Below are positions 5,187 to 46,663 of a DNA stretch of 64,000 nt, in pieces (the first letter of the stretch is position 1; every line of letters begins with the position of its first letter). Source of the DNA: a virus (taxonomy: Duplodnaviria; Heunggongvirae; Uroviricota; Caudoviricetes); the IMG/VR virus record IMGVR_UViG_3300048793_000046; one strand, written 5' to 3'. The translations under genes and the position numbers were made by a program. The notes beneath the pieces are model-generated. The model did not search any database. It saw nothing but the letters and a program-made list of their open reading frames with translations, and had not been told where the DNA came from.

Positions 5187-5247
5187 GACCCTTGACGCTG
5201 CCCTAAAATATGGTTAATGACACACTCTCCCCGGAAGGATCACGCAC

Positions 5248-6096
5248 ATGGTCGCCAGTCTCACATACCGCACGAGTGACGGAACGCGCTGGGGTGGCGG
5301 CCTCGGGTCCGATCTCTCTGCTACGCAAGTCGATCTCAACTTCTGGACACTGTTCTCTGCGGTGCAGGGGCTTCAAAGTATTACGCTAGGCGCTGGCATC
5401 GACTTCATCAATCAGCCCGCCGCAGGCAACCTGTTCTTCATCCACTTGACCGATCATCGCGTACTCGGGCCGTTCGTTATTCCGACCGCGCAGTGGACCC
5501 CGCGCGGCCAGTGGTTGCCGAACACAGTATATGCGACTTACGATGTCGTCTCGATCAACGGCTCACTCTACCTCATCACTATCCCGCATACGAGCGGCGC
5601 GACGTTCTCTGCATTCGCGACGGATGGCAGCGGACATCTTCTCTACAATCTATTGCTGCAACAGCCTGCAAACGAACTCCCGACTGGCGGCACTCTCGGA
5701 CAGCGGCTCATCAAGGCTAGCGGTAGCGATTTTGTCACGGCGTGGCAATCCGATTTTATCCGACTGGCCATTTTTGTAGCGGGCTTTCCTAATCCCAGTG
5801 AAACTCTGCTCCAGTATACAGTCGTGGACGATATGTTCCTGCCTGCGGGACTGACCGGCTCGGTCTTCTTTCAGAATACGCCAACTTCTAGCACCGTCAC
5901 CTATTCTATCTTCAAGAACGGCTCTGCCGTTGGCGTCGTCAATTTCAATGGTCCGTCGCCAGAGACCATCACCGTGACGTTTTCGGCGCAAGTCAACTTC
6001 GTCCCGGGAGATGTCATCACACTCACGGCTCCGGCGGTACCGGATGCCGCACAATCAGACATCTCATTCACGTTCCTCGCCACTCTGACGCGCTAA
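5248..6096 (+). CDS. hypothetical structural protein (282 aa)
   Basis: ORF preceded by TTGACG-16nt-TTAATG promoter-like element at 5192-5219. Confidence 0.45.
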   Translation: MVASLTYRTSDGTRWGGGLGSDLSATQVDLNFWTLFSAVQGLQSITLGAGIDFINQPAAGNLFFIHLTDHRVLGPFVIPTAQWTPRGQWLPNTVYATYDVVSINGSLYLITIPHTSGATFSAFATDGSGHLLYNLLLQQPANELPTGGTLGQRLIKASGSDFVTAWQSDFIRLAIFVAGFPNPSETLLQYTVVDDMFLPAGLTGSVFFQNTPTSSTVTYSIFKNGSAVGVVNFNGPSPETITVTFSAQVNFVPGDVITLTAPAVPDAAQSDISFTFLATLTR

Positions 6097-6105
6097 GGAT
6101 TAGTC

Positions 6106-8109
6106 ATGGGCTACCATAATCAACTCGTCAACTATCTGTCGTCCGCGAAGTACGGCGCTGTCACCGCGTGGGCGACCGCAGCGGCAAAGACGGTCGGCCA
6201 GATCGTGCGCCAGACCGCGCCAACGTCGGGCAACGAGCGGCTATGGCTTTGCTACGTCGCGGGCACCACGCACGCAACCACGGAGCCGACGTGGACAACT
6301 TCGCGCGGCGACAAGATCGCGACAGATGGCACTGTCTCGTGGATCGAAGTGACGGGTCTTCCCGCTGTCAACGCCGATAGCGCGAACACGCCTAACTGGA
6401 CGAACGGCGCTAAGAGCCAGTTCAACAATCAGGGTCACCTCATCAAAGACGTGGCTGGCACGCACTATTTTATCTGTACGACCAACGGGACCGGGGGCTC
6501 TGGCGCGGAGCCGACATGGAACACCGCCGCTCTCGGTAACACGACTGTCGATAACGGCGCGACGTGGACCTACATCGGTCTTGTCTCGTCATTCTCTACG
6601 CACTGGGGCGCACCTCACGCGACCATCACTCTCGCCACCAATAACAACTGGATGGAAAACGCGGGAGCGGGTCAAGCGCGTCGAACAATTTTTCTTGGTC
6701 ACGATCACGCGGAGAGCCGTTCGAGCAACTTTATCGGTCTCAATACTGCCAACTACACCAACAATCTGAATAACGGCAACTCGCTGGATATAGTTTGCGT
6801 GAGCACGGCGGGCAGCGTCCCTCCAGTCTCCGCCGACCTGTCCACGGCGGGCGCGATCACCACGACCGGCTCAAACGGTATCGCCATTGCTGGCGGCACC
6901 TACCGATGGGTCTACGGCATCACCTTCACGGCGGGCACCTCAGCGAACATCTCGATTGATTTTTCAGGCGAAAACAGCGACCGCTTCTTTGAGAATTGCG
7001 TGTTTGCTCTCGGGGCCGGTACCGGCTCGGGCGCGAACATGAACTTCAACGGCAGTTGCGGACGCCAGCACTTCAAAGGCTGCACGTTCACGTTCTCGAA
7101 TACCGGCCATAACTTCGGCGGCGGTCGCGTCAATTGCGAGTTCGACAACTGCACCTTCAACGGCAGTTCGCCAACGGTCAATGGTTTGTTCCTCGGCTCC
7201 GCTGGCGGATATGCGATCTTCCGCAATTGCGATTTCAGTGCGTGGACAAATGCGATCTTCCACTCGGGCACCAGCAACGTCAACTCGACCTTCATCTTCC
7301 GCGACTGCAAGATGCCGACAGGTTGGACGCCCGGCGACAATTTCGCCAACGGCGTAACCAACACTTCCGAAACTCTCATCTTCTCCCGCTGCAACACGGC
7401 GGGCGTCGCCAATCAGTGGCAGTTCTGGCAGAACGATGGCGCGGGCAACAACATACAGGCCGACAATCTTACTGCTCGTGTAGGCGGCTTGGCAGACGCG
7501 GGAACGCCGGTCTCGTGGAGGGTCACAACCAAAACCAACGTCACGATGAACTCGTCAGATGCAAGGCCACCGATGCTTGCGGAGTGGAACCCCGTGACTG
7601 GGGCCAACGTAACGGCGACCATCTTCGGTGTCATCAACGCCGCCGCGCTGCCGACCAACGACTACTGCTTCTTTGATATCGATTATCTCGGCAACTCGGA
7701 TACCCTCGGCGTTCGCAAGTCCTCGCGCATCGCCGACTATCTCGCGACGCCCGCCGCTGTTACAGCGGACACGTCGGACTGGACCACCGGAGCGGTCGCG
7801 GCTCGGCAGAACACGCATACCTATGCAGTCGGCGACGCGATCAAACTCGCGAGCAACGCGGGCCGCATTTTCTTCTGCACGGCCTCTTCGGGCAACACGG
7901 CGGGCAGCGAGCCCGGCGGCTACGCCTCTGCGGTTGACGGTGGCTCTGTCACGGACGGCTCCGCCACTTTCTGCGCGGGCATGAGGTTCAAGATGGCTGT
8001 CACACTGACGAGCCCGCAACCGCAACTGGCGGGCAACGTCTATGCTCAGATCAGGTTCGGTGCGCCCTCTGTCATAATCTATTTCGACCCGTCCTTGATC
8101 CTGACCTGA
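6106..8109 (+). CDS. tailspike/tail-fibre protein with right-handed parallel beta-helix (pectate-lyase-like) repeats
   Basis: repeated FxNCxF / NCTFNGS / FRNCDF / FRDCKM coils typical of beta-helix depolymerase folds; Gly/Thr/Asn-rich. Confidence 0.55.
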   Translation: MGYHNQLVNYLSSAKYGAVTAWATAAAKTVGQIVRQTAPTSGNERLWLCYVAGTTHATTEPTWTTSRGDKIATDGTVSWIEVTGLPAVNADSANTPNWTNGAKSQFNNQGHLIKDVAGTHYFICTTNGTGGSGAEPTWNTAALGNTTVDNGATWTYIGLVSSFSTHWGAPHATITLATNNNWMENAGAGQARRTIFLGHDHAESRSSNFIGLNTANYTNNLNNGNSLDIVCVSTAGSVPPVSADLSTAGAITTTGSNGIAIAGGTYRWVYGITFTAGTSANISIDFSGENSDRFFENCVFALGAGTGSGANMNFNGSCGRQHFKGCTFTFSNTGHNFGGGRVNCEFDNCTFNGSSPTVNGLFLGSAGGYAIFRNCDFSAWTNAIFHSGTSNVNSTFIFRDCKMPTGWTPGDNFANGVTNTSETLIFSRCNTAGVANQWQFWQNDGAGNNIQADNLTARVGGLADAGTPVSWRVTTKTNVTMNSSDARPPMLAEWNPVTGANVTATIFGVINAAALPTNDYCFFDIDYLGNSDTLGVRKSSRIADYLATPAAVTADTSDWTTGAVAARQNTHTYAVGDAIKLASNAGRIFFCTASSGNTAGSEPGGYASAVDGGSVTDGSATFCAGMRFKMAVTLTSPQPQLAGNVYAQIRFGAPSVIIYFDPSLILT

Positions 8110-8119
8110 GCATCGCCTG

Positions 8120-8674
8120 ATGGCTAACAACAAGTCCACGCTGATCACGGGGGGACTTATGTCCCCGTATTCTACCGTCCTCCTTTCGGATGACGGTACG
8201 AAGCGTGTGACTATAGTTGATGGCGTCGCGATCAATCAAGTCTCTGGCGGCGGAGTGTGGGCATCTACCGAAGCGCCCGATGTGATGGCCCTCATCGGCT
8301 ACCCGGGTTTCCCCGGCACGTTCGGCGATCTCGCCTCTACTGAGAGCGCGGACATCTTCGCGGCGGCAGGCTATCCGAACATCATCGGATTTTTAGTCGC
8401 GAGTGAAGCCCCGGATATCTTCTCAGCGTTCGGACGGCAACCGCTCTCTGGCGCTCTTGCGGCGACTGAGAGCCCGGATATTTTCGCTGCGACCGGCACC
8501 GGGCAGGGCGTGAACGGCACTTGGGTTTCAACGGAGGGGGTTGACACGTTAACCATGATAGGGAATACTCCCATCGCCGGTACGTGGGCATCCACCGAAG
8601 CCGCTGATCGATTTTCTGCAATTGGCGCTGGCGTCACTCGGGTTCGCCGTCGTCGCACTTTCTTCGCAACCTGA
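8120..8674 (+). CDS. repeat protein with six tandem ~21-aa units (wASTEaPDiFaAxG)
   Basis: repeats STEAPDVMALIGYPG / STESADIFAAAGYPN / ASEAPDIFSAFG / ATESPDIFAATG / STEGVDTLTMIGN / STEAADRFSAIGAG. Confidence 0.45.
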   Translation: MANNKSTLITGGLMSPYSTVLLSDDGTKRVTIVDGVAINQVSGGGVWASTEAPDVMALIGYPGFPGTFGDLASTESADIFAAAGYPNIIGFLVASEAPDIFSAFGRQPLSGALAATESPDIFAATGTGQGVNGTWVSTEGVDTLTMIGNTPIAGTWASTEAADRFSAIGAGVTRVRRRRTFFAT

Positions 8675-8687
8675 TCAGGAGGCTCAC

Positions 8688-9065
8688 ATGGGCGTCGTCT
8701 ACAATACCACGCTAAAAAACACGCGGATGACCAGCGTCGTCACCGCTATCGGCACTGCCGGGTTTCTCAACATCTACACCGCCGGTCTTGCCCTGTTGCT
8801 CGCAACTGTTCCGCTGCCCAACCCGGCGGGCACCGTCACGGGCGGCGTTCTGACTTTCTCGGGCATGCCACTGACCGAGGCGTCGGCGAATGCATCCGGT
8901 ACAGCGGCGGCGGCGACCGTCTCGACCGCTACCGGCGGCACCGGCACCGTGGTCGTCTCGGGCTTGACTGTGTCGTCCACTTCGGGTGACATCGTGCTGT
9001 CTTCGACGAACATCGTCGCGGGTCAGCCGTTCACGATCACCTCGGGCTCGATCACGCACGGCTAA
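8688..9065 (+). CDS. Ala/Thr/Gly-rich fibre-like protein (125 aa)
   Basis: start moved to the ATG at 8688, which has an AGGAGG RBS at 8676-8681; upstream ORF ends 8674. Confidence 0.4.
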   Translation: MGVVYNTTLKNTRMTSVVTAIGTAGFLNIYTAGLALLLATVPLPNPAGTVTGGVLTFSGMPLTEASANASGTAAAATVSTATGGTGTVVVSGLTVSSTSGDIVLSSTNIVAGQPFTITSGSITHG

Positions 9066-10033
9066 TGAAGCCCCCTCTTCATATCCAAGGCATGCATGGG
9101 ATAGGAGACTGCCTGCATCAGCGGGCGGTTCTTCGACAACTGATGCAGACGCGTGACGTGTCGCTGGAGACATCATGGCCAGCGATGTATCACGATCTCA
9201 TCGCGGACGGGCTGCGCGTTGTACGCCGTCCCGTGGCGCTGCGGACCCAGACCAAGAATGCCGTCCGCGAAAGCGAGGCGGCTAAATTTGTTTCACGTCA
9301 TCCGTTCGCGCGGGCGGGGATGCGTATTGCATATGGCGGGGGACAGGTGTTACAAGTCCCGAGCAAAACAGTTCTTGAGGTGATGTGCAATGTTACCGGA
9401 ACGAATTACGCGGAGGCGGACTATCGGCTTCCTGTCCCTGATGTATGGCAGACCGATCTCTTCAAGACCTTGGGAGCACTTCCGATGCGTTCCCGAGCTA
9501 AGCCGTGGATGGTCTACCGGCCCCTCGTCGCTCGACCTGAGTGGCGTGGCAGCATGGCACGCAATGCTGACCCGGAAGCTTACGCCGAACTCTTCAACTC
9601 CATCCGAGACGAGTTCTTCGTCGTCTCGGTCGCTGACCTTGTCGAAGGACAGGAATGGATCGTCGGCCCTGACGCTAAGGCGGACCTGAGTTTTCACCGG
9701 GGCGAGCTTGTATTCGAAACTCTAGCTGCTCTTTTCCAGCAAGCCGATCTCGTGTTCACCTCCAGCGGCTTCCCGGCGATCCTCGGTCCGGCGGTCGGCA
9801 CGCCCACAATTTCAATCGTCGGCGGCTATGAGGACTATCGCTGTCATGACAGCGGGGCGAAGTTCGCCCCCTACCTCGCAATCGGCCCGAGGGTCGGCTG
9901 TTCGTGCTGGACATCGGCCTGTCGCCAAGTGTGTGATAAGCAGATAGATATCGTCGCGGCGAAGGAGAGCATTCGTCAGTTCGTGTCCCCAATCTGTATA
10001 CAAAATCAGGACAGCCCATGCCCGGCTTCGTGA
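9065..10033 (+). CDS. glycosyltransferase family 9-like (heptosyltransferase-like)
   Basis: N-terminal GIGDCLHQRAVLRQL resembles the GT9 SLGDVxxTxPALRAL motif; sits beside gmd and fcl. Confidence 0.45.
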   Translation: MKPPLHIQGMHGIGDCLHQRAVLRQLMQTRDVSLETSWPAMYHDLIADGLRVVRRPVALRTQTKNAVRESEAAKFVSRHPFARAGMRIAYGGGQVLQVPSKTVLEVMCNVTGTNYAEADYRLPVPDVWQTDLFKTLGALPMRSRAKPWMVYRPLVARPEWRGSMARNADPEAYAELFNSIRDEFFVVSVADLVEGQEWIVGPDAKADLSFHRGELVFETLAALFQQADLVFTSSGFPAILGPAVGTPTISIVGGYEDYRCHDSGAKFAPYLAIGPRVGCSCWTSACRQVCDKQIDIVAAKESIRQFVSPICIQNQDSPCPAS

Positions 10034-10656
10034 TGATGCGTCCGCCGCAAGCACCGCTTCGAATGATCGCGCCGACTACTCAGGATGTCGCCGTCGTCAT
10101 GGGCGGAGGCGGCGACCCGTTCGCGGAGTGGGAACTCGCGAAAGAACTTTGCGGGCGCGCAGGCAAACATGCTAGTGTTTTTGCCGGGAATGACATGATA
10201 GAGATGTTTCCGGGAGATATCGATCACGCCGTCTCACTTCACCCCGACAAGCTCAGAATTTGGCTGCCACGCCGAAAGGCCGCAGGCTTCAACGACCCGC
10301 CGAAGGTTTGGGCTCATCGGAATTACGAGGGCGCGGTCACACACTGGACACGGGATTGGTCGGGCTCTACCGGACTGTTTTGCGTCAAGATCGCGCGAGA
10401 GAATGGTTTCGTTCACATCATCCTGTGCGGTGTGCCCATGACATTCGAAGGCGGACACTTTCTTCGGAAACAGCCGTGGGCCGCTTCGACCGGCTTCCGA
10501 CGCGGATGGGAGGGCCGCACACTTGAGCTTCAACCCTATCTCCGAAGCATGGGCGGATGGACGCAAGAAGAGTTTGGAGCGCCGACCGAGGACTGGCTCC
10601 GCACCGATATCGAAGACAGACATCGAAACCTTTACACCGTGGGATTAAAAGCATGA
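10018..10656 (+). CDS. hypothetical protein (212 aa) in the glycan cassette
   Basis: ORF in an operon-like arrangement. Confidence 0.4.
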   Translation: MPGFVMMRPPQAPLRMIAPTTQDVAVVMGGGGDPFAEWELAKELCGRAGKHASVFAGNDMIEMFPGDIDHAVSLHPDKLRIWLPRRKAAGFNDPPKVWAHRNYEGAVTHWTRDWSGSTGLFCVKIARENGFVHIILCGVPMTFEGGHFLRKQPWAASTGFRRGWEGRTLELQPYLRSMGGWTQEEFGAPTEDWLRTDIEDRHRNLYTVGLKA

Positions 10657-10976
10657 TGAAACCTTTCAAGATATTCGGTATCGCGCCGACGCGCGAAAAG
10701 TTTCCGTGGGTGATCTTCTTTCTGCTTACGGTGCTGTTCCTGATCGGCGTCTCCCGGCACGCACATAGCGAAGAAGACATCTGGGCCTGCTACGCCTCGC
10801 AGCGCTATCAAGCCATGTCCTCGGGTTGGCCCGCGTGCAACGAGATGAGCTATCTGTGCTCGCGCGTTCAACAGTACCTCCAGTCTCATACTATTGAAGA
10901 GGGCCGCGCCGAAGGTGAAAAACTTCACATCCCGCAGTGGCTCCGTGCGAAAGCCGAAAGGTGCATCCCCAAATGA
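10653..10976 (+). CDS. small membrane protein (107 aa, one transmembrane segment)
   Basis: start chosen at MMKPFKIF; hydrophobic stretch [14 protein letters not shown]. Confidence 0.35.
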
Positions 10977-11980
10977 ACAGAGCGCTGATCACCGGGATCA
11001 CCGGACAGGACGGAAGCTACCTCGCGGAGCTTCTGCTCGACAAAGGATACGAGGTGCACGGTATCAAGCGCCGTGCTTCTTCGTTCAACACTTCGCGCAT
11101 CGACCACCTTCCGGCTCTAAAACTTCACTATGGGGATATGACTGATGGTTCTAATCTTGCTCGTATTATTCAAGAAGTTCGCCCGAGTGAGATATACAAT
11201 CTCGCTGCTCAGTCTCATGTGCAAGTCAGCTTCGAAACGCCCGAATACACCGCTAACGCGGATGGGCTCGGCGCTATGCGCCTTCTTGAAGCGGTGCGGG
11301 CAGTAGGTCCCGGCTACTGCACGCGCTTCTATCAGGCGTCCACGTCGGAACTATACGGCAACTCGGGCGGTTATCTTCGGAACGAAAACACCCCGTTCAT
11401 GCCGCGCAGCCCATACGCCGCTGCGAAGCTCTATGCGTTCTGGATTACGGTGAACTACCGCGAAGCCTATGGCGTCCACGCGAGCAACGGCATTCTGTTC
11501 AACCACGAGAGCCCGCGACGCGGCCCGACGTTCGTCACGCGCAAGATCACCAAGGCGGTTGCCGCGATCTCAACCGGCGCGCTGGACTGTCTTCGCCTCG
11601 GCAATCTCGACGCGATGCGCGACTGGGGCCACGCCCGGGACTATGTCGAAGCGATGTGGCTGACACTCCAGCAAGACGAGCCGGATGACTACGTGATCGC
11701 GACCGGCGAGGCGCATTCCGTCCGTGAGTTTGTCGAGCTTGCGTTCGCCGAAGTCGGTATGGACATCGGATGGACTGGCGAAGGCGTCAACGAGCTAGGT
11801 ATTGATCATGTCAGCGGCCAGCCCGTGATCCGCATCGATCCCCATTATTTTCGCCCAACCGAAGTTGACCTCTTGCGCGGCGACGCGACAAAGGCTATGA
11901 CGAAACTCGGCTGGCGGCCCAAGATCGGCTTCCGCGCGCTCGTCAAGGAAATGGTTGCGGCGGATTTGGAGGATTGTTGA
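10973..11980 (+). CDS. gmd: GDP-mannose 4,6-dehydratase
   Basis: [34 protein letters not shown] plus full-length similarity to the GMD short-chain dehydrogenase fold; start set at the internal ATG 10973. Confidence 0.85.
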
Positions 11981-12789
11981 TGCTTAACCCGGACACACGC
12001 GTCGCCGTCTGTTGCTATTCGGGTGACGGTCATCAAGTCGTCGAAGCGCTGGAGTTCTACTTGCACCATGAGTGCCCGCTCACAGTTCTCTCGCCCGCAG
12101 ACAGCAAGGTCGATGTCAACTATCCGGGCGTGACGAATGTCTTCGCCGGGAAGGCTGCCTACATCGGGCCGGACAGTTTTGACCGGGAAATGCTCCATCT
12201 CGCGGCGCTGTTGCAGTATCCCGAAAACCACTTCCTGATCCATGACGCCGACAGCATCATGCTCGATCCAAAAATCCCGGACTATCTGTACGCCGAGCCC
12301 GATATGGTTTGGTCGAACCAAGTCACCGACGCCATCCCTGAGCATCAGTCGTTCTTTCCCGAGGGCTGGCCGCACGTCGCTTTTCAGCCGCCGTACTTCC
12401 TGAGCCGCAGGACCATCGAAGCGATGCTCGCGGTCAAGGACGATCCCCGCGTCATAAGGGATCATCCGTGCATGCCGTTCATCGATTTCTACATGGTGCA
12501 GTTGACCATCGTCGCCGGGCTGCCGTGGCGGCGACTGATGGATTGCATTTCGTGTCCGATCTCGATAGACCTTCGCAAGGTCAACCCTCCCGAAGCTGAT
12601 CTCGTCACGTATGACATGGGAATGAAGATAGCGTCCAATGCTGTCCTCCGCGAGGGCACAAGCGTCCTTCACTCGGTCAAGAACTCGGTCGCTATCCGCA
12701 CGCTTGCGGGGTTGCGTCAACAATATCTCGCCAATCACCCGGATGCTCAGCCAAAGTTCTTCCCAGCCCCCACAATCGGAAGAGGCTAA
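11974..12789 (+). CDS. hypothetical protein, possible glycosyltransferase-like (IHDADSIML DxD-like motif)
   Basis: lies between gmd and fcl; DAD motif. Confidence 0.4.
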
Positions 12790-13661
12790 TGCTCGATCTG
12801 TCCCGTGTCACGCTTCTCTTCGTTGAAACCCGAGCCCACGCGATCACCAAGCGCGTGATCGATGACTGTCTGGCCAAGGCCGACTTCGGAGACGTGCTGA
12901 TCTATTCTGACAAGCCAGACCTAATCCCGATCTCCGGGGCGCGGCATATCCTCGTTCCAGACTTCCCGGACAAACGGGAGGCCGGACGCTTCTATTATTC
13001 AGAGGCGATGGCCAAGGTCGAAACCGATTTCGCTCTGATGCTGGAATGGGACGGCGGCATATATGACCCGTCGAAATGGAAGCCCGAGTTCTTTGACTAC
13101 GATTACATCGGAGCGCCGTGGCGGGTCCGCGACCAATACGACGTGGGTAACGGCGGCTTCACGTTGATGTCAAAGAAACTGGGGCACTTCATCTGCGAGA
13201 ATGCGGAGAAATATCCCGTCTGCACTGACATCGATATCTGCCGAGCCCAGCGCGAGAATTACGAGGCCGCCGGGTTCAAATGGCCTACGGCGTTGCTCGC
13301 ATCTTGCTTCTCGTGGGAGCTTGGGCTACGCAATCCAGAGCACTTCGGCTTTCACGGCGCGTTCACGTGGCCCGAAGTGCTGCCCAAGGAAGAGCTTGTT
13401 ATCCGCACCGGGCTACTGACCGAGACATCGTACCTGATGGCGAAGATGTATTACCTCGTTCGCGCGGCCCCTGAAATTTTGAAAGACTTGACACCAGAGC
13501 AGGCCGAACGCTATGTCTCGATTTACGGCGAACCGCAACCGCGCATCCCGGGCCACATCGCAGGCCGCTATATGTCTCCGCAACAGCGCGCGGCAATGAT
13601 GCTTGTTCAGGCGCAGCGACAGGGGCTCATCTCTCATCAACAAAAAGGGCTCAAAGCATGA
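12789..13661 (+). CDS. hypothetical protein in the glycan cassette (290 aa)
   Basis: translationally coupled with neighbouring genes. Confidence 0.4.
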   Translation: MLDLSRVTLLFVETRAHAITKRVIDDCLAKADFGDVLIYSDKPDLIPISGARHILVPDFPDKREAGRFYYSEAMAKVETDFALMLEWDGGIYDPSKWKPEFFDYDYIGAPWRVRDQYDVGNGGFTLMSKKLGHFICENAEKYPVCTDIDICRAQRENYEAAGFKWPTALLASCFSWELGLRNPEHFGFHGAFTWPEVLPKEELVIRTGLLTETSYLMAKMYYLVRAAPEILKDLTPEQAERYVSIYGEPQPRIPGHIAGRYMSPQQRAAMMLVQAQRQGLISHQQKGLKA

Positions 13662-14614
13662 AACGAAATAGCCCCATCCTCGTGACCGGCGCGAACGGGC
13701 TCGCCGGGTCTGCCGTTGTCGAGCATCTCCGCGCCAACGAGTTCACGTGCGTCATTCCAATCACCCGGGACGATGTTGATCAAGTTGATCTCCGTGATCA
13801 TAAGGCCGTGCACGATCTCTTCGAGCGCATCGGCGGCGACCGGGGTCCCTTCTACGTCTTCCACGCAGCAGCGACGGTCTACGGCCTCGGCGGCAACATG
13901 GCCAATCAGGGCAAGAGCATTCTCGACAACACGCTGATCAACACTGCCGTCATTGACGCTGCACAGCGTTCGGGCTGTCGCAAGATCACCGTCATGGGTA
14001 CGAACGCCGCATACCCGTGGCCGACACCGCTGCCCTTCAAAGAAGAGAACCTATACAACGGTCGCCCCGACGCGGGCGAGTTCGGCTACGGGCACGCGAA
14101 GCGTCACATGCTAGCGATGCTCGAAGCATATCAACAGAGCTACGGGCTGGAGTATTGCTACATCGTCAGCGGCAATCTCTATGGCCCGCGAGATACGTTC
14201 AACTCGAAGACCGGCCACGTACTACCGTCCCTGATCGCGAAATTCTCCGCTGCCAAAATTACCGGCGGCACTGTGGAAATCTGGGGCGACGGAACGGCTA
14301 GGCGTGACTTCCTGTACAGCAAAGACCTTGCTCGCGTCGTGCAGTTGCTCATGTCGGAAGACATCAAGCCCGGACCGATCAACATTGGTAGCGGAGAGGC
14401 GTATAGCATCCAACGTATCGTCGATTTGCTATGTACAATCTCCGGCGTCAGTGCGGACCGCGTCCGCTGGGATGCCTCTAAACCGAACGGGCGACTGGAC
14501 TGCCGCGCCGATCTCTCGCGTCTTGGGGCACTCGGCTTCTCGCCGAATTACTCAATTGAACAGGGCCTACAGGAGACGTGGGATTGGTTTAAGCGCGCTA
14601 CGGAGCGGGCATAA
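13658..14614 (+). CDS. fcl: GDP-L-fucose synthase (GDP-4-keto-6-deoxymannose 3,5-epimerase/4-reductase)
   Basis: ILVTGANGLAGSAVVEHL Rossmann N-terminus, YxxxK region, length of about 318 aa typical of Fcl/WcaG. Confidence 0.8.
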   Translation: MKRNSPILVTGANGLAGSAVVEHLRANEFTCVIPITRDDVDQVDLRDHKAVHDLFERIGGDRGPFYVFHAAATVYGLGGNMANQGKSILDNTLINTAVIDAAQRSGCRKITVMGTNAAYPWPTPLPFKEENLYNGRPDAGEFGYGHAKRHMLAMLEAYQQSYGLEYCYIVSGNLYGPRDTFNSKTGHVLPSLIAKFSAAKITGGTVEIWGDGTARRDFLYSKDLARVVQLLMSEDIKPGPINIGSGEAYSIQRIVDLLCTISGVSADRVRWDASKPNGRLDCRADLSRLGALGFSPNYSIEQGLQETWDWFKRATERA

Positions 14615-14686
14615 ACCGGGTTGACACGGGAACATGGTTAATGCTACACGTGGGCGGAAACCTATCCCCCGCGAAAGGGCACCCCC

Positions 14687-14956
14687 ATGTTCTCATTTCT
14701 CACGAACCTTGAAATCAACCTCGCGACCAACGTCGTTTGCCTAATCCTCGGCATGGTCTTCAAGACCAAGATCACGGACTTCTTCAAGGGCATCCCGGCT
14801 CAGGCTCGCGTCGCGCTCAATCAAGTCGAAGCCGATACCGCTTCCAAGCTCCGGGGCGCGCAGGCTCAGGTTATCAACTCGCTTCCCGGCGCTCCCCCGG
14901 CTCCGAAGGCTGCACTTGCGCCCGGCGCATCTCCCCCGGCTGCGCCCGCCGTTTAA
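14687..14956 (+). CDS. small membrane protein, holin candidate (89 aa)
   Basis: single transmembrane segment VVCLILGMVF; immediately upstream of the endolysin; TTGACA and TGGTTAATG elements upstream (14621-14643). Confidence 0.4.
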   Translation: MFSFLTNLEINLATNVVCLILGMVFKTKITDFFKGIPAQARVALNQVEADTASKLRGAQAQVINSLPGAPPAPKAALAPGASPPAAPAV

Positions 14957-14979
14957 TTCCGTCAACCGCTGAGCACATC

Positions 14980-15819
14980 ATGGCCCTCAACACCTACAAG
15001 CCATTCGTTGATCGCATGATCGGCAAGTACGAGGGCGGCTACGGCTGGGATAAAGCGGACACGGGCGGCCCGACGAAATACGGCATCACCTGTTTCGATC
15101 TCGCCGAGCACATGGGCCAGAAGATGGACAGCATGGCGCGCTGGGCTCCTATCGTCCGCGCGATGACACTCGAAACCGCCGAGCAAATTTATAAGACCAA
15201 ATACGCGGGTGCAATTCGCTATGACGATCTCCCCGCCGGTCCCGATGTCGAGATGATGGACTACGGCGTCAACTCCGGTATTACGCGGCCCATCCGCGTT
15301 GTGCGTGCCATCCTCGGCGTCCCCGGCAGTGCGAAGATGGATCAAGCGCTGCTCGATGCCATCAAGAAGGCGGACCCGACCAAGCTCGTCGCCGACATCA
15401 GCGCCGAGCGACTGCACTTCATGCATGCTATCCGCAACGGTTCAGCATGGAATAGTTTCGGCGGCGGCTGGGGCGCGCGTGTGGCCGATCTTAAAGCCTA
15501 CGCCAACCATCTCATCGCTGCTCCGGGCACCGTTGCCGAGCCGCAGGCTCCCGATCTCACGAAGGTCTCGATGCCCAAAGCGCAACACGGTTCTCCGAAC
15601 ACTGTCAAGAACGTCATCAAGACGACAACCGCGACCGCGACCGCTTCCGGCACCGGCAGTCACTTTTCCGGCCTGCCGCTGGAGTTGACTGCGGTCATCG
15701 TCGGGTTCGTTATTGTCGGCGGCATCGCCTACGTTCTGTACGCCAAGCAGAAGGCTGCGAACGACAACGCGACCGTCATCCTTCCGCCGGTCGTGACGCC
15801 CATCCTCAAAGCTGCATAA
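14980..15819 (+). CDS. endolysin, glycoside hydrolase family 108 (lysozyme-like) with C-terminal transmembrane anchor
   Basis: MALNTYKPFVDRMIGKYEGGYGWDKADTGGPTKYGIT is the GH108 signature N-terminus; C-terminal hydrophobic stretch AVIVGFVIVGGIAYVLY; start chosen at ATG 14980 rather than the upstream frame extension. Confidence 0.7.
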   Translation: MALNTYKPFVDRMIGKYEGGYGWDKADTGGPTKYGITCFDLAEHMGQKMDSMARWAPIVRAMTLETAEQIYKTKYAGAIRYDDLPAGPDVEMMDYGVNSGITRPIRVVRAILGVPGSAKMDQALLDAIKKADPTKLVADISAERLHFMHAIRNGSAWNSFGGGWGARVADLKAYANHLIAAPGTVAEPQAPDLTKVSMPKAQHGSPNTVKNVIKTTTATATASGTGSHFSGLPLELTAVIVGFVIVGGIAYVLYAKQKAANDNATVILPPVVTPILKAA

Positions 15820-15828
15820 GGTTTCCTC

Positions 15829-16329
15829 ATGTCCAATCTCGATCACCTCGCCGATCTCCTGCTCCCCGCGCTCATCGGCTTCACGCTGGCGGTGGCGTAC
15901 TTCTTTGGCGTGCGTCCACTGCTAAAGCAGACGCCCGGCTTCAAGCAATTGTATGCGAGCGAAGACACGATCCTCAACGCGCTCGCGGTGAAGCTCAGCG
16001 GCGTGAAGCAAAAGATCACGACCATCTTCCTGTCGGCGGCGGGCTTCATCGTGGTCGCTCACGATGAGATCACCCCGTTCATCACGCAAGTCGGCGTGGA
16101 CCCGGCACAGATTTTGCCGAAGGTGCCGACGTGGGTCTGGCCGGTCGCGTCCGTCGCGGTCCTGTGGCTCATCCAGCATTTCCGAAACCTCGCTGACGTG
16201 CAAGCCCGTGCGAACGCTGAGGCGCTGCTCAATGCCGGTCATCCGCTCGCCGCTCCAGCCCCGGGCCTCCCGCTCGATACGCTGCCGTCCCCGTCGCCCT
16301 TGGCGTCGCTCCCTGACAAGGAAGGCTGA
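15829..16329 (+). CDS. membrane protein of the lysis cassette (holin or spanin candidate)
   Basis: multiple hydrophobic segments; directly downstream of the endolysin. Confidence 0.45.
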   Translation: MSNLDHLADLLLPALIGFTLAVAYFFGVRPLLKQTPGFKQLYASEDTILNALAVKLSGVKQKITTIFLSAAGFIVVAHDEITPFITQVGVDPAQILPKVPTWVWPVASVAVLWLIQHFRNLADVQARANAEALLNAGHPLAAPAPGLPLDTLPSPSPLASLPDKEG

Positions 16330-16332
16330 TCC

Positions 16333-16797
16333 ATGGGTGCTATCGCTGCTATTTTCACTGGACTGTCAACTGTATCGTCTCTCGTCACCGGGATGTTCGG
16401 CACCATCAACGGCATCACCAAGGCGCTCGCAGATGAGAAGATCAACGCGCGCAACGCGACGACCGAGGAAGAGAAAATCCACTCTAATGAGCGGATCAGC
16501 ATGTTACAGGCCCGGCGCGACGTGCTGATCGGGGAAGCCGGGTCCGGTTCGCGTCTCAATCTGATCGTGCGATCTCTGTTCGCCTTGGGACCGCTGAGCG
16601 TTGTCCTCAAGCTCTACTTCTGGGACAAGGTGATCGGCTCACTCGTCGGCTGCTCTCAGGCTCCCGCCGGAACATGCGGGATGTTTACTACCGACCCGCT
16701 CGATGAGAATGGCTGGAAAGTCATGAGCGTCGTGCTGGGCTTCTACTTTGTTTCCGAAATCACGCTCGGCGTCACTCGAATGGTGAAGTCGAAATAA
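16333..16797 (+). CDS. membrane protein of the lysis cassette
   Basis: N-terminal transmembrane segment MGAIAAIFTGLSTVSSLV and additional hydrophobic segments. Confidence 0.45.
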   Translation: MGAIAAIFTGLSTVSSLVTGMFGTINGITKALADEKINARNATTEEEKIHSNERISMLQARRDVLIGEAGSGSRLNLIVRSLFALGPLSVVLKLYFWDKVIGSLVGCSQAPAGTCGMFTTDPLDENGWKVMSVVLGFYFVSEITLGVTRMVKSK

Positions 16798-16813
16798 GCG
16801 GGGGATTTTTCCT

Positions 16814-17515: not shown

Positions 17516-17521
17516 AAGCCG

Positions 17522-17779
17522 ATGTGGCTCGGAAAGACCAGTCTGGTCACAGCCCACATCATCTATCGGATGCCGGATCATCAGTCATTGTTGCAAGACT
17601 TCATCTGGCAGGACTATGATACGCTCCCGGACTTCCCGACGCTTCGAAAATTCCTGCTCTTCTGGCGAGACAATATCGACGGTCCGCTGTACGACGTTCG
17701 GGTCGGTCAAATCCTGACCCGCGCACAGATCATTATCGATCTTCATGATTTTGATTTTAAGGGCAGACCAACATGCTAG
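17522..17779 (+). CDS. hypothetical protein (85 aa)
   Basis: ORF only. Confidence 0.3.
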   Translation: MWLGKTSLVTAHIIYRMPDHQSLLQDFIWQDYDTLPDFPTLRKFLLFWRDNIDGPLYDVRVGQILTRAQIIIDLHDFDFKGRPTC

Positions 17780-17832
17780 TAGTCAGGCTGACGAGCTTGT
17801 GCTAGTCTGGACGAAATGAGAAAGGCCGCGCG

Positions 17833-31271: not shown

Positions 31272-31459
31272 TTGAATATCTCCGTTTTTGAGGTTGCTAG
31301 TCAGGTCTATAGGTTCGTCGATACGCCTGCCTCAGATGTTGGTCAAGAGGAAAATTTGGCAGGGTTAATAGATCACATGCTTATCCGCTTGACACATGCA
31401 CCTACCAGTGCTATATAGATGGCAGAGGCCAAGAGGGCCTTGGTTAACAGGAGTTTGAT

Positions 31460-31942: not shown

Positions 31943-31945
31943 GTC

Positions 31946-33013: not shown

Positions 33014-33033
33014 AACCGGATAAGCATGATAGA

Positions 33034-33509: not shown

Positions 33510-33512
33510 GGG

Positions 33513-40215: not shown

Positions 40216-40266
40216 GGTGTGTCCTTTCGAGTTGATGTGATATGATGTGGACCGTTGGCAGGATGT

Positions 40267-40286
40267 GGTTAATGCAAATTAACCAC
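40267..40286. promoter_or_regulatory. palindromic element TGGTTAAT-GCAA-ATTAACCA
   Basis: perfect 8-bp inverted repeat about 50 nt upstream of the SSB gene start; half-site recurs elsewhere. Confidence 0.5.
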
Positions 40287-40290
40287 GAAG

Positions 40291-40986
40291 TCAAGCGACA
40301 AAATGGTGCCATCCAAAGAAAACTGCGGCACCCAAAATCGCCCCGGGGACAACGTCCACAACGTAGTGCTGCTTGGTTTTGAGCGCCGACACCGCGATGA
40401 GCAGCGGGAAGAGCCCACCGACATACCCGGCGACCGGCCAGTTCTGCCAGATGGTCAGATCAACCATCATGGCGACGCTCACGTGCATGCTCGGCAGGCT
40501 GTTGCGGAGCTTGTCATAGCTCCATACGAGATCGAGCATTTGCATTGAGTGCGGCCAGAGCACGCTCGCGCGCTCGCGATGAATGACGACCCTTTCGGTC
40601 GCCAGCAAGCCGCCTGCCATATCGTTGTCAAGGGCCTGCTTGACTACCATGTGCTCGCGCCAGTGGGGCGGAATAGCGACCGGCCAGAATATAAAAGAAG
40701 CCACCTGCACGGCGAGCAACGTCAGAAAGCAGCCGACCGTGTAGGCGTAGGCTTGCCACGTTGGCACCGTGAGCGCCGCGAGCAGGATCATCGGGTAGTA
40801 GAGCCCGGAATAAATCCAGACCCATCGCGGATCGAAATTGATCCTCTGATCCCAGCGCGTCTCGAAATAGCGAGCGTCGAAAAACGTCTGGCGCTGAGCC
40901 CAGAAATAAAATTGATACCCGCCGACGATCAGGACGACCGTGATGAAGAGTTCAAGAACCCGGTCGAACATCTCCATCGTCATCAT
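40291..40986 (-). CDS. PAP2-superfamily membrane phosphatase
   Basis: PSMH (PSGH-like) and SALKTKQHYVVDV (SRxxxxxHxxxD-like) acid-phosphatase motifs; multiple transmembrane segments. Confidence 0.55.
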   Translation of the reverse strand: MMTMEMFDRVLELFITVVLIVGGYQFYFWAQRQTFFDARYFETRWDQRINFDPRWVWIYSGLYYPMILLAALTVPTWQAYAYTVGCFLTLLAVQVASFIFWPVAIPPHWREHMVVKQALDNDMAGGLLATERVVIHRERASVLWPHSMQMLDLVWSYDKLRNSLPSMHVSVAMMVDLTIWQNWPVAGYVGGLFPLLIAVSALKTKQHYVVDVVPGAILGAAVFFGWHHFVA

Positions 40987-42035: not shown

Positions 42036-42267
42036 CGGAGCGGCTTCTTCACTGCTTCCCCTTCATAGGAGAATGTCTCTATCAGCTTGTAGGTCCCGAT
42101 CAGGACCTTCTCGCCCATAGGAACCAGATTTGCGATGTCGGTATCCGCGATGGGGTATTCAGTGTCCCCGTCGCGCTCAATCTTGATGAAAATTTCCTTG
42201 GGAAGCTTACGCATGGGACATTCCTTTGTTTAAGGGCGGGGTGGCCTAGCACACAGACAGGGCCGCG

Positions 42268-43566
42268 TCAACCGAAGTCATCGTCATCATCGTCATCGGC
42301 GGCGAACTCATTCTGAGCGTCATCGAGCGCGCTCGCCACTTCGCGCGGGTCGGTGATCGGCGCAATCGTCAGCGCACCGTTCGGCATGAATGCCAACTCA
42401 CTGACGGCGAGCTTGACAAGCTTGCGTTGTGGCCGACCCACGCCGAGCTTTTCCATTTGCGCTGGCGACTTGAGTTTCGGCTCAATCCAGAGATCGGCGT
42501 CATCGATCCCGATATCCACGCCGGTCATCTTGGTCTGCACGGCTGTCGTGCTGAGCCAGCGGCGCTTCGCTCTACCCCGAACAAGCTTCCAGCCGGAAAC
42601 CTCGTTGCCGTTCTCAAGCTCGCGCTGTATGTCGGCCTTGATGTTGGCAACCCACGCTTCGATAACCGGGACCCACGTCATCTTGTGCGCGAGTTCTTCG
42701 GTGCTCTTCGGTAGCGGAAGGATAGCGGGAGGCTCATCCTCCGAGAAATCGGCTTTCGCTTCTTCGAGCATCATCTCATCGAACTCGGGACAACGCGTCT
42801 TCGCCGGGCACCATAGGCACCAATCGCCAGCACGGCGCGGCGCGTTTGGTTTCGAAGTCGCTTCGGCGGCTTCCTTGACCCTGATCTCATAGAGTTTCAA
42901 CTCGTCAATAGAAAAACTCTCGGAGCGGATCAGGCCGTCTTTGTGAGGCGAGTTCGGTTGTGAGATGGTAACTGTCACGCCTTCGGCTTCGGGATACTCA
43001 TGCGCCGCCAGCATCGCATACTGCTTGAGTTGATCGTTGTCCTTGGCCTCAACGAGGATGTAACCGTTCTTGTGATCGACCACGTCGAGCCAGCCGAACG
43101 GCTCGATAATCGGAACGTCAAGCGTTCCGCCGAGCCGACTGTCGAGCCACGAACCGTCTAGGTAAACTTCGGAAAGGACCTGAGTGCCTTCGCATCTTTC
43201 GCCCCGGATGCGATCCACCTCATCAATGGTTTGCTGCACGCCTTCGACCATCTTCTCGTCGGCGACGAACATAAACCATCCCGGGCGCGCGTTCTCAGGA
43301 TCAAGCGCGGGAGCGCCGGGCGGGTAGTACTCAGTCTCATGGTCCTCGCCGTCGTCGTCGCCGCCGTAGACGAGAAAGGTCGAACCCAGATAATCGCGAG
43401 CTTCATGATCGCCCGCGATGATCATGACTTCGATCAGCTTGTGCGCGGCAGTGCCGAGCATCGCGGCTTGATTTGTCGTCGAGCTTTCGTCGCCGATGAG
43501 GGCAACAGAGCCGGGACAATTCATCCATATGTGCGAAGCTGAGGGGGGAAGCTTTGCGTGAGCCAT
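42268..43566 (-). CDS. PD-(D/E)XK nuclease, Cas4/RecB-like exonuclease with C-terminal Cys cluster
   Basis: DVVDHKNGYILVEAKDNDQLKQYAM (D..EAK..QxxxY RecB motifs) and CLWCPAKTRCPEF cysteine cluster. Confidence 0.55.
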   Translation of the reverse strand: MAHAKLPPSASHIWMNCPGSVALIGDESSTTNQAAMLGTAAHKLIEVMIIAGDHEARDYLGSTFLVYGGDDDGEDHETEYYPPGAPALDPENARPGWFMFVADEKMVEGVQQTIDEVDRIRGERCEGTQVLSEVYLDGSWLDSRLGGTLDVPIIEPFGWLDVVDHKNGYILVEAKDNDQLKQYAMLAAHEYPEAEGVTVTISQPNSPHKDGLIRSESFSIDELKLYEIRVKEAAEATSKPNAPRRAGDWCLWCPAKTRCPEFDEMMLEEAKADFSEDEPPAILPLPKSTEELAHKMTWVPVIEAWVANIKADIQRELENGNEVSGWKLVRGRAKRRWLSTTAVQTKMTGVDIGIDDADLWIEPKLKSPAQMEKLGVGRPQRKLVKLAVSELAFMPNGALTIAPITDPREVASALDDAQNEFAADDDDDDDFG

Positions 43567-43578: not shown

Positions 43579-43941
43579 TCAGGGTTGGCAGGGAAACGTC
43601 ACCGGCATGCGACTGTTGCTCGATATCTGCAACCACGCCTCGGTTTCGTTCTTGAAGACTTCCGGGCAGCGCTTGTTCTGCCAGAGCGGGCTGCCGCTCA
43701 TCTCGGTTACATCATCCCATTCATCATCCGCGCCGGTCAGTGGCGTGAGGGAGCGATGATTGGCGAGCCGGACGAACGTATCAAGCGTTTGCCTCGCACT
43801 GCCGCCGGAATGGCCATAAGCGCAGAACGTCTCCATCAGCGCGGTGACTTGCACGCCGATCTCGCCATTGTAGTCGCTGTCATCGTCGAACAGGCCAGCG
43901 GCGCGCAGTTCGGATTTGGCATGCTGGAGCAAGCTTGTCAT
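43579..43941 (-). CDS. hypothetical protein (120 aa)
   Basis: ORF only. Confidence 0.35.
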   Translation of the reverse strand: MTSLLQHAKSELRAAGLFDDDSDYNGEIGVQVTALMETFCAYGHSGGSARQTLDTFVRLANHRSLTPLTGADDEWDDVTEMSGSPLWQNKRCPEVFKNETEAWLQISSNSRMPVTFPCQP

Positions 43942-45427: not shown

Positions 45428-46020
45428 CTCTGGAGGGAGTTGCGAACCGCGAGTGAGACTTCCACCGGGGTAGCTGGGCGCGGCATGGCGTCAACCCAGT
45501 GTGTTCCGTAGGGCCAGAAGACCCGGGCGTGTTCGGTGTCGCCGATGCGCTCATTGAGCGTTACCGCGCCATCGACGAAAAGCGTCTCGTGAATTTCGTC
45601 GGCACGCTGATGATAGACATCGCCCGGCTCATAGGGCTCTTTGGATTTGGGCTCCAACACACATGCGTTGAATGAGGATTTATCCAGCCCACCATCTTCG
45701 CCGGTCTTGATAGTCGCGTAGGCGTGCGTGAACTTCCCGGGCGCGTCTCTCGAATAAGCTAACGTCGTCTGGCGATATCGCTGATTGATAAACTCGCCAG
45801 CGACAATGACAGAGGTGAAATCCCACGGGTGATCATGGATGGTTGAAACATTCGGAACGGTGAAGCGATGATCCCAGAGATTGAGACGGAAGCGCTTCGG
45901 CGCATCCGCCGGACCGAAATAGGTCCGCAGAAAGCCGAAGCCTTGCACGGTCCACTCGCGATGTTCGTCTCGCAAAATCGTCGAGACTAGCGGCTTGAGA
46001 AAAGTCAGATCGGTTTTCAT
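45418..46020 (-). CDS. hypothetical protein (200 aa)
   Basis: ORF only. Confidence 0.4.
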   Translation of the reverse strand: MKTDLTFLKPLVSTILRDEHREWTVQGFGFLRTYFGPADAPKRFRLNLWDHRFTVPNVSTIHDHPWDFTSVIVAGEFINQRYRQTTLAYSRDAPGKFTHAYATIKTGEDGGLDKSSFNACVLEPKSKEPYEPGDVYHQRADEIHETLFVDGAVTLNERIGDTEHARVFWPYGTHWVDAMPRPATPVEVSLAVRNSLQRWF

Positions 46021-46081
46021 GGGGAGTTCTCACAAAGAGAACGGGCGGCGCATCATTGCGCCGCCCCGCGCGTCGGTCTGC

Positions 46082-46591
46082 TTAACCGAACTCGTCTTCG
46101 GGCTCCGCAGCGGTAGCCGTCTGACCGCCCTCGCCCCGGAGAAGAACCTGACAGGCTTCGAAGACCGCGTCGTATTTCTCGGGTTTGAGAGCGTCGCACC
46201 GTTCGACGCCGCCGCCGTCATCCAGCAGGATATCCTTGGCATCTTGCCTGCCGACATCGGCGGCAACCTTGCGGATCATCTCGCGGACCTGATCAAGGGT
46301 GTGCTTGCCGCCCTTGGCTTTGGTGCTTCCAGCAGGACCGCCGGATGCGGGTGCGCCGCCGCCGGTCTTCCCAGCGGCGACCTTGGCAGCCGCCTCAGCC
46401 GTGGCCCGGGCCTTGGCCTTCGCATCGATAACCGCCTTATTGTCGCCGCCGGGCGCGGTAGCTCCAGTGGCAGCGGGTCTTGAAGTGGCACCGGGAGTGG
46501 CGGCACCGCCACCGCCCTTGGTGAGCGCAGCGTGAATGTCGCCGAGCTTCTTTGAGATTTCAGTGAGCAGTGCATCGGACATGGGGGACAA
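46082..46591 (-). CDS. Ala/Gly/Lys-rich low-complexity protein with structured C-terminal domain
   Basis: ORF only. Confidence 0.4.
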   Translation of the reverse strand: MSPMSDALLTEISKKLGDIHAALTKGGGGAATPGATSRPAATGATAPGGDNKAVIDAKAKARATAEAAAKVAAGKTGGGAPASGGPAGSTKAKGGKHTLDQVREMIRKVAADVGRQDAKDILLDDGGGVERCDALKPEKYDAVFEACQVLLRGEGGQTATAAEPEDEFG

Positions 46592-46663
46592 CTCCGTAAG
46601 GTTAATGTGGTGCGGTCCTACCCGCCTGACAGCGCGCTGTCAAGCGGGTTTAGGAAACCATTT

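Follow-up and report, generated by a model that had tools for sequence, protein, structure and literature searches.

CtrA is the master cell-cycle response regulator of alphaproteobacteria, and the 8-mer TTAACCAT is an ungapped half-site of the CtrA box TTAA-N7-TTAA(C) (PMC6180460, PMC3692519). In Caulobacter, the chromatin immunoprecipitation (ChIP) peaks of SciP, which often overlap CtrA sites, have the consensus (G/A)TTAACCAT(A/G), called 'half a CtrA box' (PMC4083442). Binding and regulation of phage promoters by CtrA were shown with electrophoretic mobility shift assays (EMSA) and reporter assays for several unrelated alphaproteobacterial phages. The phages with CtrA sites in that work include Brevundimonas phage Delta, phiCbK-like phages, Sphingomonas phage MMDA13 and Rhizobium phages Palo and Pasto, and gaps of ~1 kb rich in TTAA or TGCGTTAACCAT repeats were described between divergent gene blocks (Mascolo et al. 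2022, PMC9437464). The use of CtrA by phages was proposed only in 2022, from sites ahead of unknown-function genes, and these cases concern a few genes. Here we analysed a 64-kb window (the whole stretch of DNA studied) of IMG/VR virus record IMGVR_UViG_3300048793_000046, in which a short motif, GGTTAAT, and its extended form, TGGTTAATG, recur ahead of operons. We put the probability at roughly 0.65 that host CtrA, possibly with SciP, acts on these sites as operators that mostly repress phage promoters. The phage would then probably time its genes by the host cell cycle and form a new lineage among the phages that were described in 2022 as exploiting CtrA, the phenomenon itself being known.

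The original prediction described the motif as recurring upstream of operon-leading genes on both strands, and all of its single sites were found again: ATATGGTTAATG at 5208-5219 and 24019-24030, TGGTTAATG at 14635-14643, GATGGTTAATG at 29858-29868 and, with one mismatch, AAGGTTAATG at 46598-46607. Five exact copies of TGGTTAATG are present against 0.21 expected, and at least five arose in 0 of 100 shuffles; for GGTTAAT the corresponding figures are 11 copies, 2.7 expected and 0 of 100 shuffles with at least 11. All 11 copies of GGTTAAT are intergenic (hypergeometric P = 2e-10), in a window of which 14% is intergenic, and when k-mers of the intergenic DNA were compared with those of the window as a whole, GGTTAAT/ATTAACC ranked first. 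The degenerate word RTTAACCATR occurs four times in the window (0.09 expected), and five of the six copies of TTAACCAT in the window are intergenic. The tetramer TTAA is itself concentrated between genes (28 of 60 copies, P = 8e-10), with 12 of the 60 in a 1374-bp gap at 56245-57618 (P = 5e-9) and ten within 56700-57000. Looked at across the window for frequency and positional bias, the motif is above expectation and intergenic, and on both points the original prediction held. It could be argued that these figures reflect composition, AT-rich words gathering in the non-coding DNA of a GC-rich genome and TAA being shunned in genes: TTAA, which includes a stop codon, is as a rule rare within genes, the intergenic GC content (55.9%) is slightly under that of the window (~58%), and mononucleotide composition predicts ~21 intergenic copies of TTAA, which makes the 28 seen only mildly high. 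Such an argument fails, however, for TGGTTAATG and RTTAACCATR with their large excess over expectation, for the column-wise conservation in orthologous promoters (alignments A1-A3) and for the exclusive N7 spacing in relatives that are described below; we regard chance as effectively refuted already, with almost no probability left to it.

By sequence, the motif is the known CtrA-type box in its extended half-site form, (G/A)TTAACCAT(A/G). TGGTTAATG is the reverse complement of the CtrA half-site TTAACCAT, the other strand of the sites reads CATTAACCAT, and the exact 10-mer, of which the window has four copies, is present at 5209-5218, 14633-14642 and 24020-24029, three of the sites listed above. 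The boxes of the window thus match the Caulobacter 8-mer and 10-mer exactly, and those of the relatives match the full box. The palindrome TGGTTAAT-GCAA-ATTAACCA, reported earlier at 40267-40286, is also present, one base further left at 40266-40285; in it the two TTAA units are spaced by N6 (TTAA-N6-TTAA), a variant of a dyad whose spacing in relatives L001-L003 is N7. The claim of orientation independence stood relative to genes (two on the plus strand and four on the minus strand), but the five exact 9-mers all lie on the plus strand. A Chi- or KOPS-like strand polarity was rejected, five of five on one strand being not significant and the gap copies lying on the other strand. Scans for the full N7 site alone would miss genomes such as this one, with mostly half-sites.

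Every GGTTAAT (11 of 11) lies inside or at most 22 nt from a promoter of the form TTGACA-N16-18-TAnnnn. Promoters were listed by taking each intergenic TTGAC together with the sequence 17 nt downstream, combined with conservation in relatives; an Escherichia coli-style scan was too strict, demanding T at the last -10 position, and returned only the promoter of the transfer-messenger RNA (tmRNA). The listing gave a sigma-70-type family, TTGACA-N16-18-TAnnnC, four members of which are conserved in relatives (alignments A1-A3). Three layouts of box and promoter can be distinguished. In the first, represented by the promoters at 5192, 14621, 40294 and 47586, the box occupies the spacer or covers the -10 element. 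The plus-strand promoter of the 5248 operon (5192-5220) has TTGACG as its -35 and reads TTGACG-N17-TAATGA; a near-full dyad, CTAA-N7-TTAA (5203-5217), lies over its spacer and -10, with the box ATTAACCATA on the minus strand at 5209-5218. Its layout is that of the promoters of the single-stranded DNA-binding protein (SSB) gene in relatives, and the operon is headed by a CBM5/12 tail-fibre-like gene (5248-6096, Pfam CBM_5_12), followed by downstream genes. The lysis-cassette promoter (14621-14649, plus strand, TTGACA-N17-(G)CTACAC), which carries ATGGTTAAT (14634-14642) in its spacer, drives a holin-like gene (14687-14956) and a GH108 endolysin gene (14980-15819). On the minus strand, the promoter of the SSB-DNA polymerase operon (40266-40294), the SSB being identified as an Enc34 ssDNA-binding protein, reads TTGACT-N17-TAACCA with TTGACT as the -35, and the palindrome TGGTTAATGCAAATTAACCA (TTAA-N6-TTAA, 40266-40285) fills its spacer and -10. 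The Prim-Pol/DUF5906 promoter (47586-47614, plus strand, TTGCCA-N17-TAGGGA) has the half-site AGTTAAC (47593-47599) in its spacer.

In the second layout, the box lies at about +1 to +10 (24021-24030, 46598-46607 and, weakly, a bare TTAA at 42230). The minus-strand promoter of the 23563-24003 operon (24021-24067) consists of TTGCAA-N17-TAGGCC (24067-24039), 8 nt and CATTAACCAT (24030-24021), the box standing 17 nt ahead of the ATG; the same layout is found at 46598-46643 and at 8924-8980 of relative L010. The promoter of 46082-46582 (46598-46643, minus strand) reads TTGACA-N17-TAGGAC followed, after 7 nt, by CATTAACCTT (46607-46598), ahead of the Shine-Dalgarno sequence GGAG. A weak member at 42230-42271 (minus strand, TTGACG-N17-TAGGCC) has a bare TTAA 9 nt after the -10 (gene start 42214). 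In the third layout, the box lies 15-22 nt upstream of the -35 (29859-29868, 31363, 56915 and 56972). At the minus-strand promoter of the DUF932 gene (28746-29777; promoter region 29816-29868), CATTAACCAT (29868-29859) stands directly after the terminator hairpin of the upstream gene and 15 nt upstream of TTGCGA-N16-TATGTA (29843-29816). A divergent control region at 31318-31448 has GGTTAAT (31363-31369) between a minus-strand promoter at 31346 (TTGACC-N17-TATCGA) and a plus-strand promoter at 31389 (TTGACA-N17-TATATA), and a GGTTAAC (31442-31448) adjoins the ribosome-binding site of the 31460 gene.

The boxes are thus offset by 3, 4-5 or 9-11 nt after the -35, lie on the -10, or follow it by 7-9 nt, or precede the -35 by 15-22 nt, and no box is present at the strong tRNA-array (28305) and tmRNA (49975) promoters. 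Variable position and orientation, together with absence from some promoters, argue for an operator and not a core promoter element. The original prediction of a regulatory element tied to operon-leading promoters agrees with the finding that all GGTTAAT copies are intergenic and promoter-near, and its statement that the motif is not a simple extended -10 agrees with the varying position relative to -35 and -10; the TTGACG and TTGACA seen near the motif are true -35 hexamers, although the distance of the motif from them differs from site to site. A phage-specific promoter element, the other option it had offered, does not fit boxes that may occupy the spacer, cover the -10, lie near +1 or precede the -35. 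A core promoter part, extended -10-like or phage-specific and recognised either by RNA polymerase or by a sigma factor or RNA polymerase of the phage, would nevertheless be in keeping with the constant nearness of the motif to promoters, with the TG upstream of TTAAT and with the lysis-promoter box 2-3 nt upstream of the -10 in nine of 10 lineages. We consider it very improbable, given that box position ranges from 22 nt upstream of the -35 to about +10, that both orientations occur, that the lysis-promoter box of relative L109 is displaced by 3 nt with the total spacer length unchanged, that the strong tRNA and tmRNA promoters have no box, that the A which is critical at position 2 of a -10 hexamer is missing from both GTTAAT and TTAATG, and that no phage RNA polymerase or sigma factor was detected in Pfam and PHROGs scans.

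Several other candidates were tried and set aside. Sigma-54, extracytoplasmic function (ECF) sigma and MerR-type layouts did not fit in spacing, and the alpha-type LexA box GTTC-N7-GTTC and the FNR and IHF consensus sequences gave no match. An RNA-level element of the 5' leader is at odds with the location of some boxes upstream of the predicted start, and for a TAATG stop/start overlap the flanking open reading frames (ORFs) are absent.

Relatives with 50-86% protein identity were collected from IMG/VR, Joint Genome Institute (JGI) metagenomes, NCBI and ENA; the queries 6106-8109, 3444-5186, 58079-58870 and 57232-58095, meant for the 5211 site and the genes next to the gap, retrieved none. 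In ~190 kb of these relatives, TTAA pairs with N7 spacing occur eight times, whereas every other spacing from 0 to 20 occurs 0-1 times, and all eight N7 pairs are intergenic, at SSB, 46082-ortholog and DUF932 promoters and two others. The SSB promoter of L001-L003 reads TTGACA-N4-GGTTAA-N7-TTAA and carries a canonical CtrA dyad (alignment A3), with degenerate versions in L005 and L006 and an N9 version in L004; on this comparison, the palindrome of the window is the N6 variant of that dyad. Full and half boxes replace each other elsewhere as well. The DUF932 promoter of L010 has a full N7 box, TTAACCGGATGTTAACCAT, at a distance to TTGCAG-N16-TATGTT equal to that of the lone half-site in the window. 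Upstream of the 46082 ortholog, the full box TTAA[TC]GAATTCTTAACC of L026 and L028 begins 9 nt past the -10, as the TTAA of the window does, L024 and L025 have a half-site and L023 has no box. At the Prim-Pol promoter, GTTAA is invariant in seven lineages and the neighbouring spacer bases vary (alignment A1). The lysis promoter has ATGGTTAA(C/T) in nine of 10 lineages and ACGGTTAA in the tenth (alignment A2), flanked by a TTGAC and a G(C/G)TA -10 that are both invariant, and all nine TTAACCAT 8-mers in ~100 kb of the lysis loci of relatives are at the lysis promoter. The box is under purifying selection in the lysis and Prim-Pol promoters. The unchanged motif, the turnover of sites and the interchange of full and half forms point to binding sites of one stable factor, and a motif that stays constant across phages with this degree of protein divergence is what a host factor predicts.

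Two observations adjoin these promoters. The SSB 5' leader (40216-40265, minus strand; CTGCCAAG...ATCACATCACATCAAATCGAAAGGA), which is also present in L001-L006, is more conserved than the promoter and may act in translation as an operator, through which SSB could for instance regulate itself. L133 (16950-17000) and L135 (14855-14905) have, past the point that corresponds to the right end of the window, a second divergent control region with a conserved TTGACA...AGGATA...gtgTTAACCAC, which is a further box of this type.

Three features of the phage point to an alphaproteobacterial host: a tmRNA of the alpha type (132.7 bits), an IS1595-type transposase with homologs mostly in metagenome-assembled genomes (MAGs) of Alphaproteobacteria and -10 elements of the GCTAnA type, which resemble Caulobacter promoters. 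The DNA-recognition region of CtrA is strongly conserved across this class. Within the phage, no response regulator, of the OmpR family or otherwise, no SciP-like protein and no helix-turn-helix (HTH) protein was found by Pfam and PHROGs scans of nearly all genes and the ORFs of the gaps. A CtrA sequence in which Pfam shows Response_reg and Trans_reg_C gave no tblastn match in the window, in 7.6 kb upstream or in the loci of relatives. The HTH candidate named in the original prediction (52614-52934) has no ortholog in the box-keeping relatives L029, L133 and L135 and no DNA-binding family match, while the prediction of a DNA-binding regulator as such is the best explanation of the motif; we infer that this regulator is CtrA, with or without SciP.

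A phage-encoded protein that recognizes ATTAACC(A/T)T as a unit would be the main rival for this role. Its boxes would serve as operators or iterons, grouped into arrays in the gap, which would be an origin or control region, and standing singly at the promoters of operons. Candidates would be an early repressor, a Prim-Pol/DUF5906 initiator, a ParB/KorB-like global regulator or a mimic of the CtrA DNA-binding domain. A precedent for the last is offered by Roseobacter phage RDJL3 (L130, OK283305.1), in which the minus-strand gene 32899-33738 is annotated as a 'CzcR-like response regulator', yet its product has no receiver domain. Its Trans_reg_C winged HTH is 43% identical over 74 residues to the DNA-binding domain of CtrA (KIIDVFVCKMRKKL versus KIIDVFICKLRKKL), a second HTH is present at the C-terminus, and the protein may be a CtrA mimic carried by a phage. 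CtrA-type boxes are absent from the first 50 kb of RDJL3. For a ParB-like protein, the model would be KorB, a member of the ParB family that uses an HTH to bind 13-bp palindromes, the 12 OB operators of plasmid RK2. As with KorB, the phage has a short operator dispersed over many promoters at variable distances, with clustering in addition, and a gene with a weak ParB/Srx-like fold (59152-59679) is conserved beside the gap. In contrast to KorB, the product of this gene shows only weak fold similarity (E >= 0.03) and no HTH, most boxes are non-palindromic, and the motif is the consensus of a host factor.

Several of the observations that count against CtrA as the binder also speak for a phage protein. 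The window contains no exact TTAA-N7-TTAA pair, and with one mismatch allowed N7 is not enriched over other spacings: the only such match at a motif site is CTAA-N7-TTAA at 5203-5217, the other intergenic one being TTAA-N7-TTGA at 31444. Half-sites are accompanied by a single good dyad, the N6 palindrome at 40266-40285. The single boxes share an identical 9-mer, and their common core, CATTAACCA, is longer than the TTAA required by CtrA. The TTAACCTTAA arrays of the gap, with their 13-bp period, are kept in the window, L029, L133 and L135, and their spacings (N2, N3, N9 and N15, with N7 only once in relatives) are not explained by the classic CtrA dimer. The regulator search covered ~72 kb of the phage, and ~10 kb of the 74.8-kb source contig, where a factor could be encoded, lies outside. 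A phage-borne CtrA mimic in the wider group would not be far-fetched, given RDJL3, and CtrA is presumed to be present in the host from its class. Nevertheless, neither a CtrA homolog, nor a homolog of the RDJL3 winged HTH protein (searched by tblastn), nor an HTH family was found in these ~72 kb or in ~40 kb around the gap in relatives, the proposed candidate (given also as 52614-52931) is missing from relatives that keep the boxes, and across phages with just 50-85% identity between their proteins the motif stays identical to the host CtrA/SciP consensus in both half and N7 forms. We therefore hold a phage-encoded factor to be unlikely, if a serious alternative, and host CtrA to be the preferred binder.

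The gap separates two divergent blocks of small early genes. Within its cluster at 56414-56992, ATTAACC occurs at 56414, 56915 and 56971, and 21-nt repeats, TTAACCTTAATTCTTAACCAT, start at 56743, 56783, 56826 and 56972, with an inverted partial copy at 56709-56727. The iteron-like units proposed for 56700-57000 are therefore present as four copies of this 21-mer, although exact TTAACCAT is found in only one of them. These repeats are interleaved with promoters at 56892 (minus), 57008 (plus) and 57174 (plus). The gaps of L029, L133 and L135 contain equivalent arrays, in which TTAACCTTAA is the unit and the period is 13 bp; the gaps hold 17 of 36 TTAA copies in L133 and 19 of 26 in L135, in arrays with the non-canonical spacings N2, N3 and N9. 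The gap arrays thus appear clearly conserved and functional, yet not classic CtrA dimer sites, and they may be half-site arrays, origin iterons or sites of another protein.

Two genes beside the gap deserve mention. The first rightward gene after it (57232-58095, plus strand) encodes 287 amino acids with repeated Cys-X2-Cys zinc-ribbon-like motifs (phrog_1081) and a weak NinG/Rap-like stretch, and is absent from L133 and L135. This ORF matches the public gene call on an identical Logan contig, and the antisense ORF 57619-58116 is not favoured. The gene at 59152-59679 (plus strand) is a widely conserved early gene with 84 homologs, an invariant DGHHR motif and no Pfam family. The AlphaFold model of its product (predicted local distance difference test, pLDDT, 90) contains no HTH and gave weak ParB/Srx-fold matches (Osa, Atu1540, sulfiredoxin and the ParB N-domain, E 0.03-1.5).

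If host CtrA is the binder, the boxes would be operators set in or beside the phage's own sigma-70-type promoters (TTGACA-N17-TAnnnC). They overlap the RNA polymerase footprint at the lysis, tail-fibre, SSB/DNA polymerase, Prim-Pol, 24003 and 46582 promoters. Phosphorylated CtrA (CtrA~P), alone or with SciP, would block RNA polymerase from the spacer and -10 boxes (5192, 14621, 40294 and 47586) and likewise from the boxes at +1 to +10 (24003, 46582 and, weakly, 42214), so that the predicted sign of regulation is mostly negative; the upstream boxes (29868, 31363, 56915 and 56972) could activate or act cooperatively. Replication and lysis genes would be held down at high active CtrA and released upon CtrA clearance, and the replication, tail-fibre and lysis genes would follow the CtrA state of the host, that is, its cell cycle or motility state. 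The proposed occlusion parallels the repression of phage Delta gene DELTA_120 (PMC9437464) and the silencing of the Caulobacter origin by CtrA (PMC4083442), and its outcome would be the 'lytic deferment' conceived by Mascolo et al. 2022 (PMC9437464). It also follows the logic of Caulobacter, with activation sites near the -35 and repressing half-sites over the -10; the phage boxes differ from the Caulobacter CtrA box in belonging to promoters with a strong -35 (TTGACA) and in being placed mostly like repressor sites. An analogy would be offered by two cases summarised in PMC9437464, Spo0A boxes in phi29-family promoters and the LexA boxes of several temperate phages, with sites for a host factor coupling the lytic programme to host physiology, with a different regulator, motif and clade.

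Like the phages of Mascolo et al. 2022, in which the host-regulator boxes comprise TTAA-N7-TTAA, half-sites and TGCGTTAACCAT repeats, the present one has boxes of the CtrA type concentrated in intergenic DNA, a TTAA-rich gap of ~1-1.4 kb between divergently transcribed blocks, sites gained and lost upstream of orthologous genes and, probably, an alphaproteobacterial host; its DNA polymerase is distantly related to the AAT-1/Delta group. Unlike them, its boxes are mostly single extended half-sites and serve many operons with recognisable functions, there is no exact N7 dyad in the window, and the gap arrays are spaced N2/N9. The phage also represents another lineage, one that is uncultured and equipped with both a tRNA array and a tmRNA. 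What is unusual is the restriction of this genome to half-sites, the boxes in lysis and replication promoters and the non-canonical gap arrays. Boxes within recognisable lysis and replication promoters, kept across many metagenomic lineages, offer testable targets of putative CtrA/SciP gating. A bolder proposal, to which we give somewhat less than an even chance, is that a widespread, uncultured, tRNA-rich clade of alphaproteobacterial phages has wired most of its operon promoters, among them those of the holin-endolysin cassette, SSB/DNA polymerase, Prim-Pol and the tail fibre, to host CtrA/SciP through single extended half boxes in the spacer or at the transcription start. CtrA would then be linked directly, for the first time, to the lysis and replication genes of a phage, lytic deferment would gain a concrete mechanism, and the TTAACCTTAA arrays in the gap would be a new multi-half-site architecture and possibly a CtrA-silenced origin like Cori.

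The window is a section of a novel tailed-phage genome without a close cultured relative. It is 100% identical to two Logan contigs of run SRR35912384, attempts to extend it past position 64000 recovered no sequence, and a protein identical to the product of 59152-59679 (P0001) sits on the 74.8-kb JGI contig. A megablast search with 20 kb of the window matched no cultured phage, two large structural proteins gave no tblastn match, and searches with the tail-fibre proteins returned no informative homologs; the family-A DNA polymerase is 42.7% identical to its counterpart in RDJL3, the nearest cultured phage. A plus-strand block (1-18264) with tail-fibre, sugar-modification and lysis genes is followed by a long minus-strand block (18349-47510) with 27 tRNA genes and replication genes (SNF2 helicase, DNA polymerase A, Enc34-type SSB and DUF2800 nuclease). 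The plus-strand Prim-Pol/DUF5906 gene (47648-49978) comes next, with the two-piece tmRNA downstream.

The 27-tRNA array (24272-27852, minus strand) includes one tRNA with an odd anticodon loop, and its promoter (28277-28305, minus strand) is an apparent consensus, TTGACA-N17-TATAAG, without a CtrA-type box. The tmRNA (50025-50389, plus strand) is of the alphaproteobacterial two-piece (permuted) type, with a tag reading frame of roughly ANDNVPMNEMRLAA, its own promoter (TTGACA-N16-TAAGAT, 49975-50002) and a strong terminator (50389-50420). On the plus strand inside the minus-strand block, the region 31460-33013 holds a DUF551-like gene followed by the IS1595-family transposase gene (31946-33013; DDE_Tnp_IS1595 and zinc ribbon), whose nearest homologs are 63-77% identical; the promoter of this region at 31389 is the best sigma-70 promoter of the window. 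Adjoining the DUF2800 nuclease gene is a homolog of Tad3 (43579-43941, minus strand; Pfam E = 2e-28), which inhibits type I Thoeris defence.

A sugar-metabolism block (9185-14614, plus strand) separates the tail-fibre genes from the lysis cassette and is kept in relatives; by sequence inspection it contains genes for a GDP-mannose 4,6-dehydratase-like protein (10973-11980) and an NAD-dependent epimerase-like protein (13658-14614), and it may serve virion or host-surface modification. Downstream of the 24003 promoter lie nucleotide-metabolism genes (23563-24003 and 20075-20611, both minus strand), one with a weak match to a dATP/dGTP diphosphohydrolase N-terminal domain (26.5 bits, cutoff 27) and another for a nucleoside 2-deoxyribosyltransferase, which hints at nucleotide-pool or DNA-base modification.

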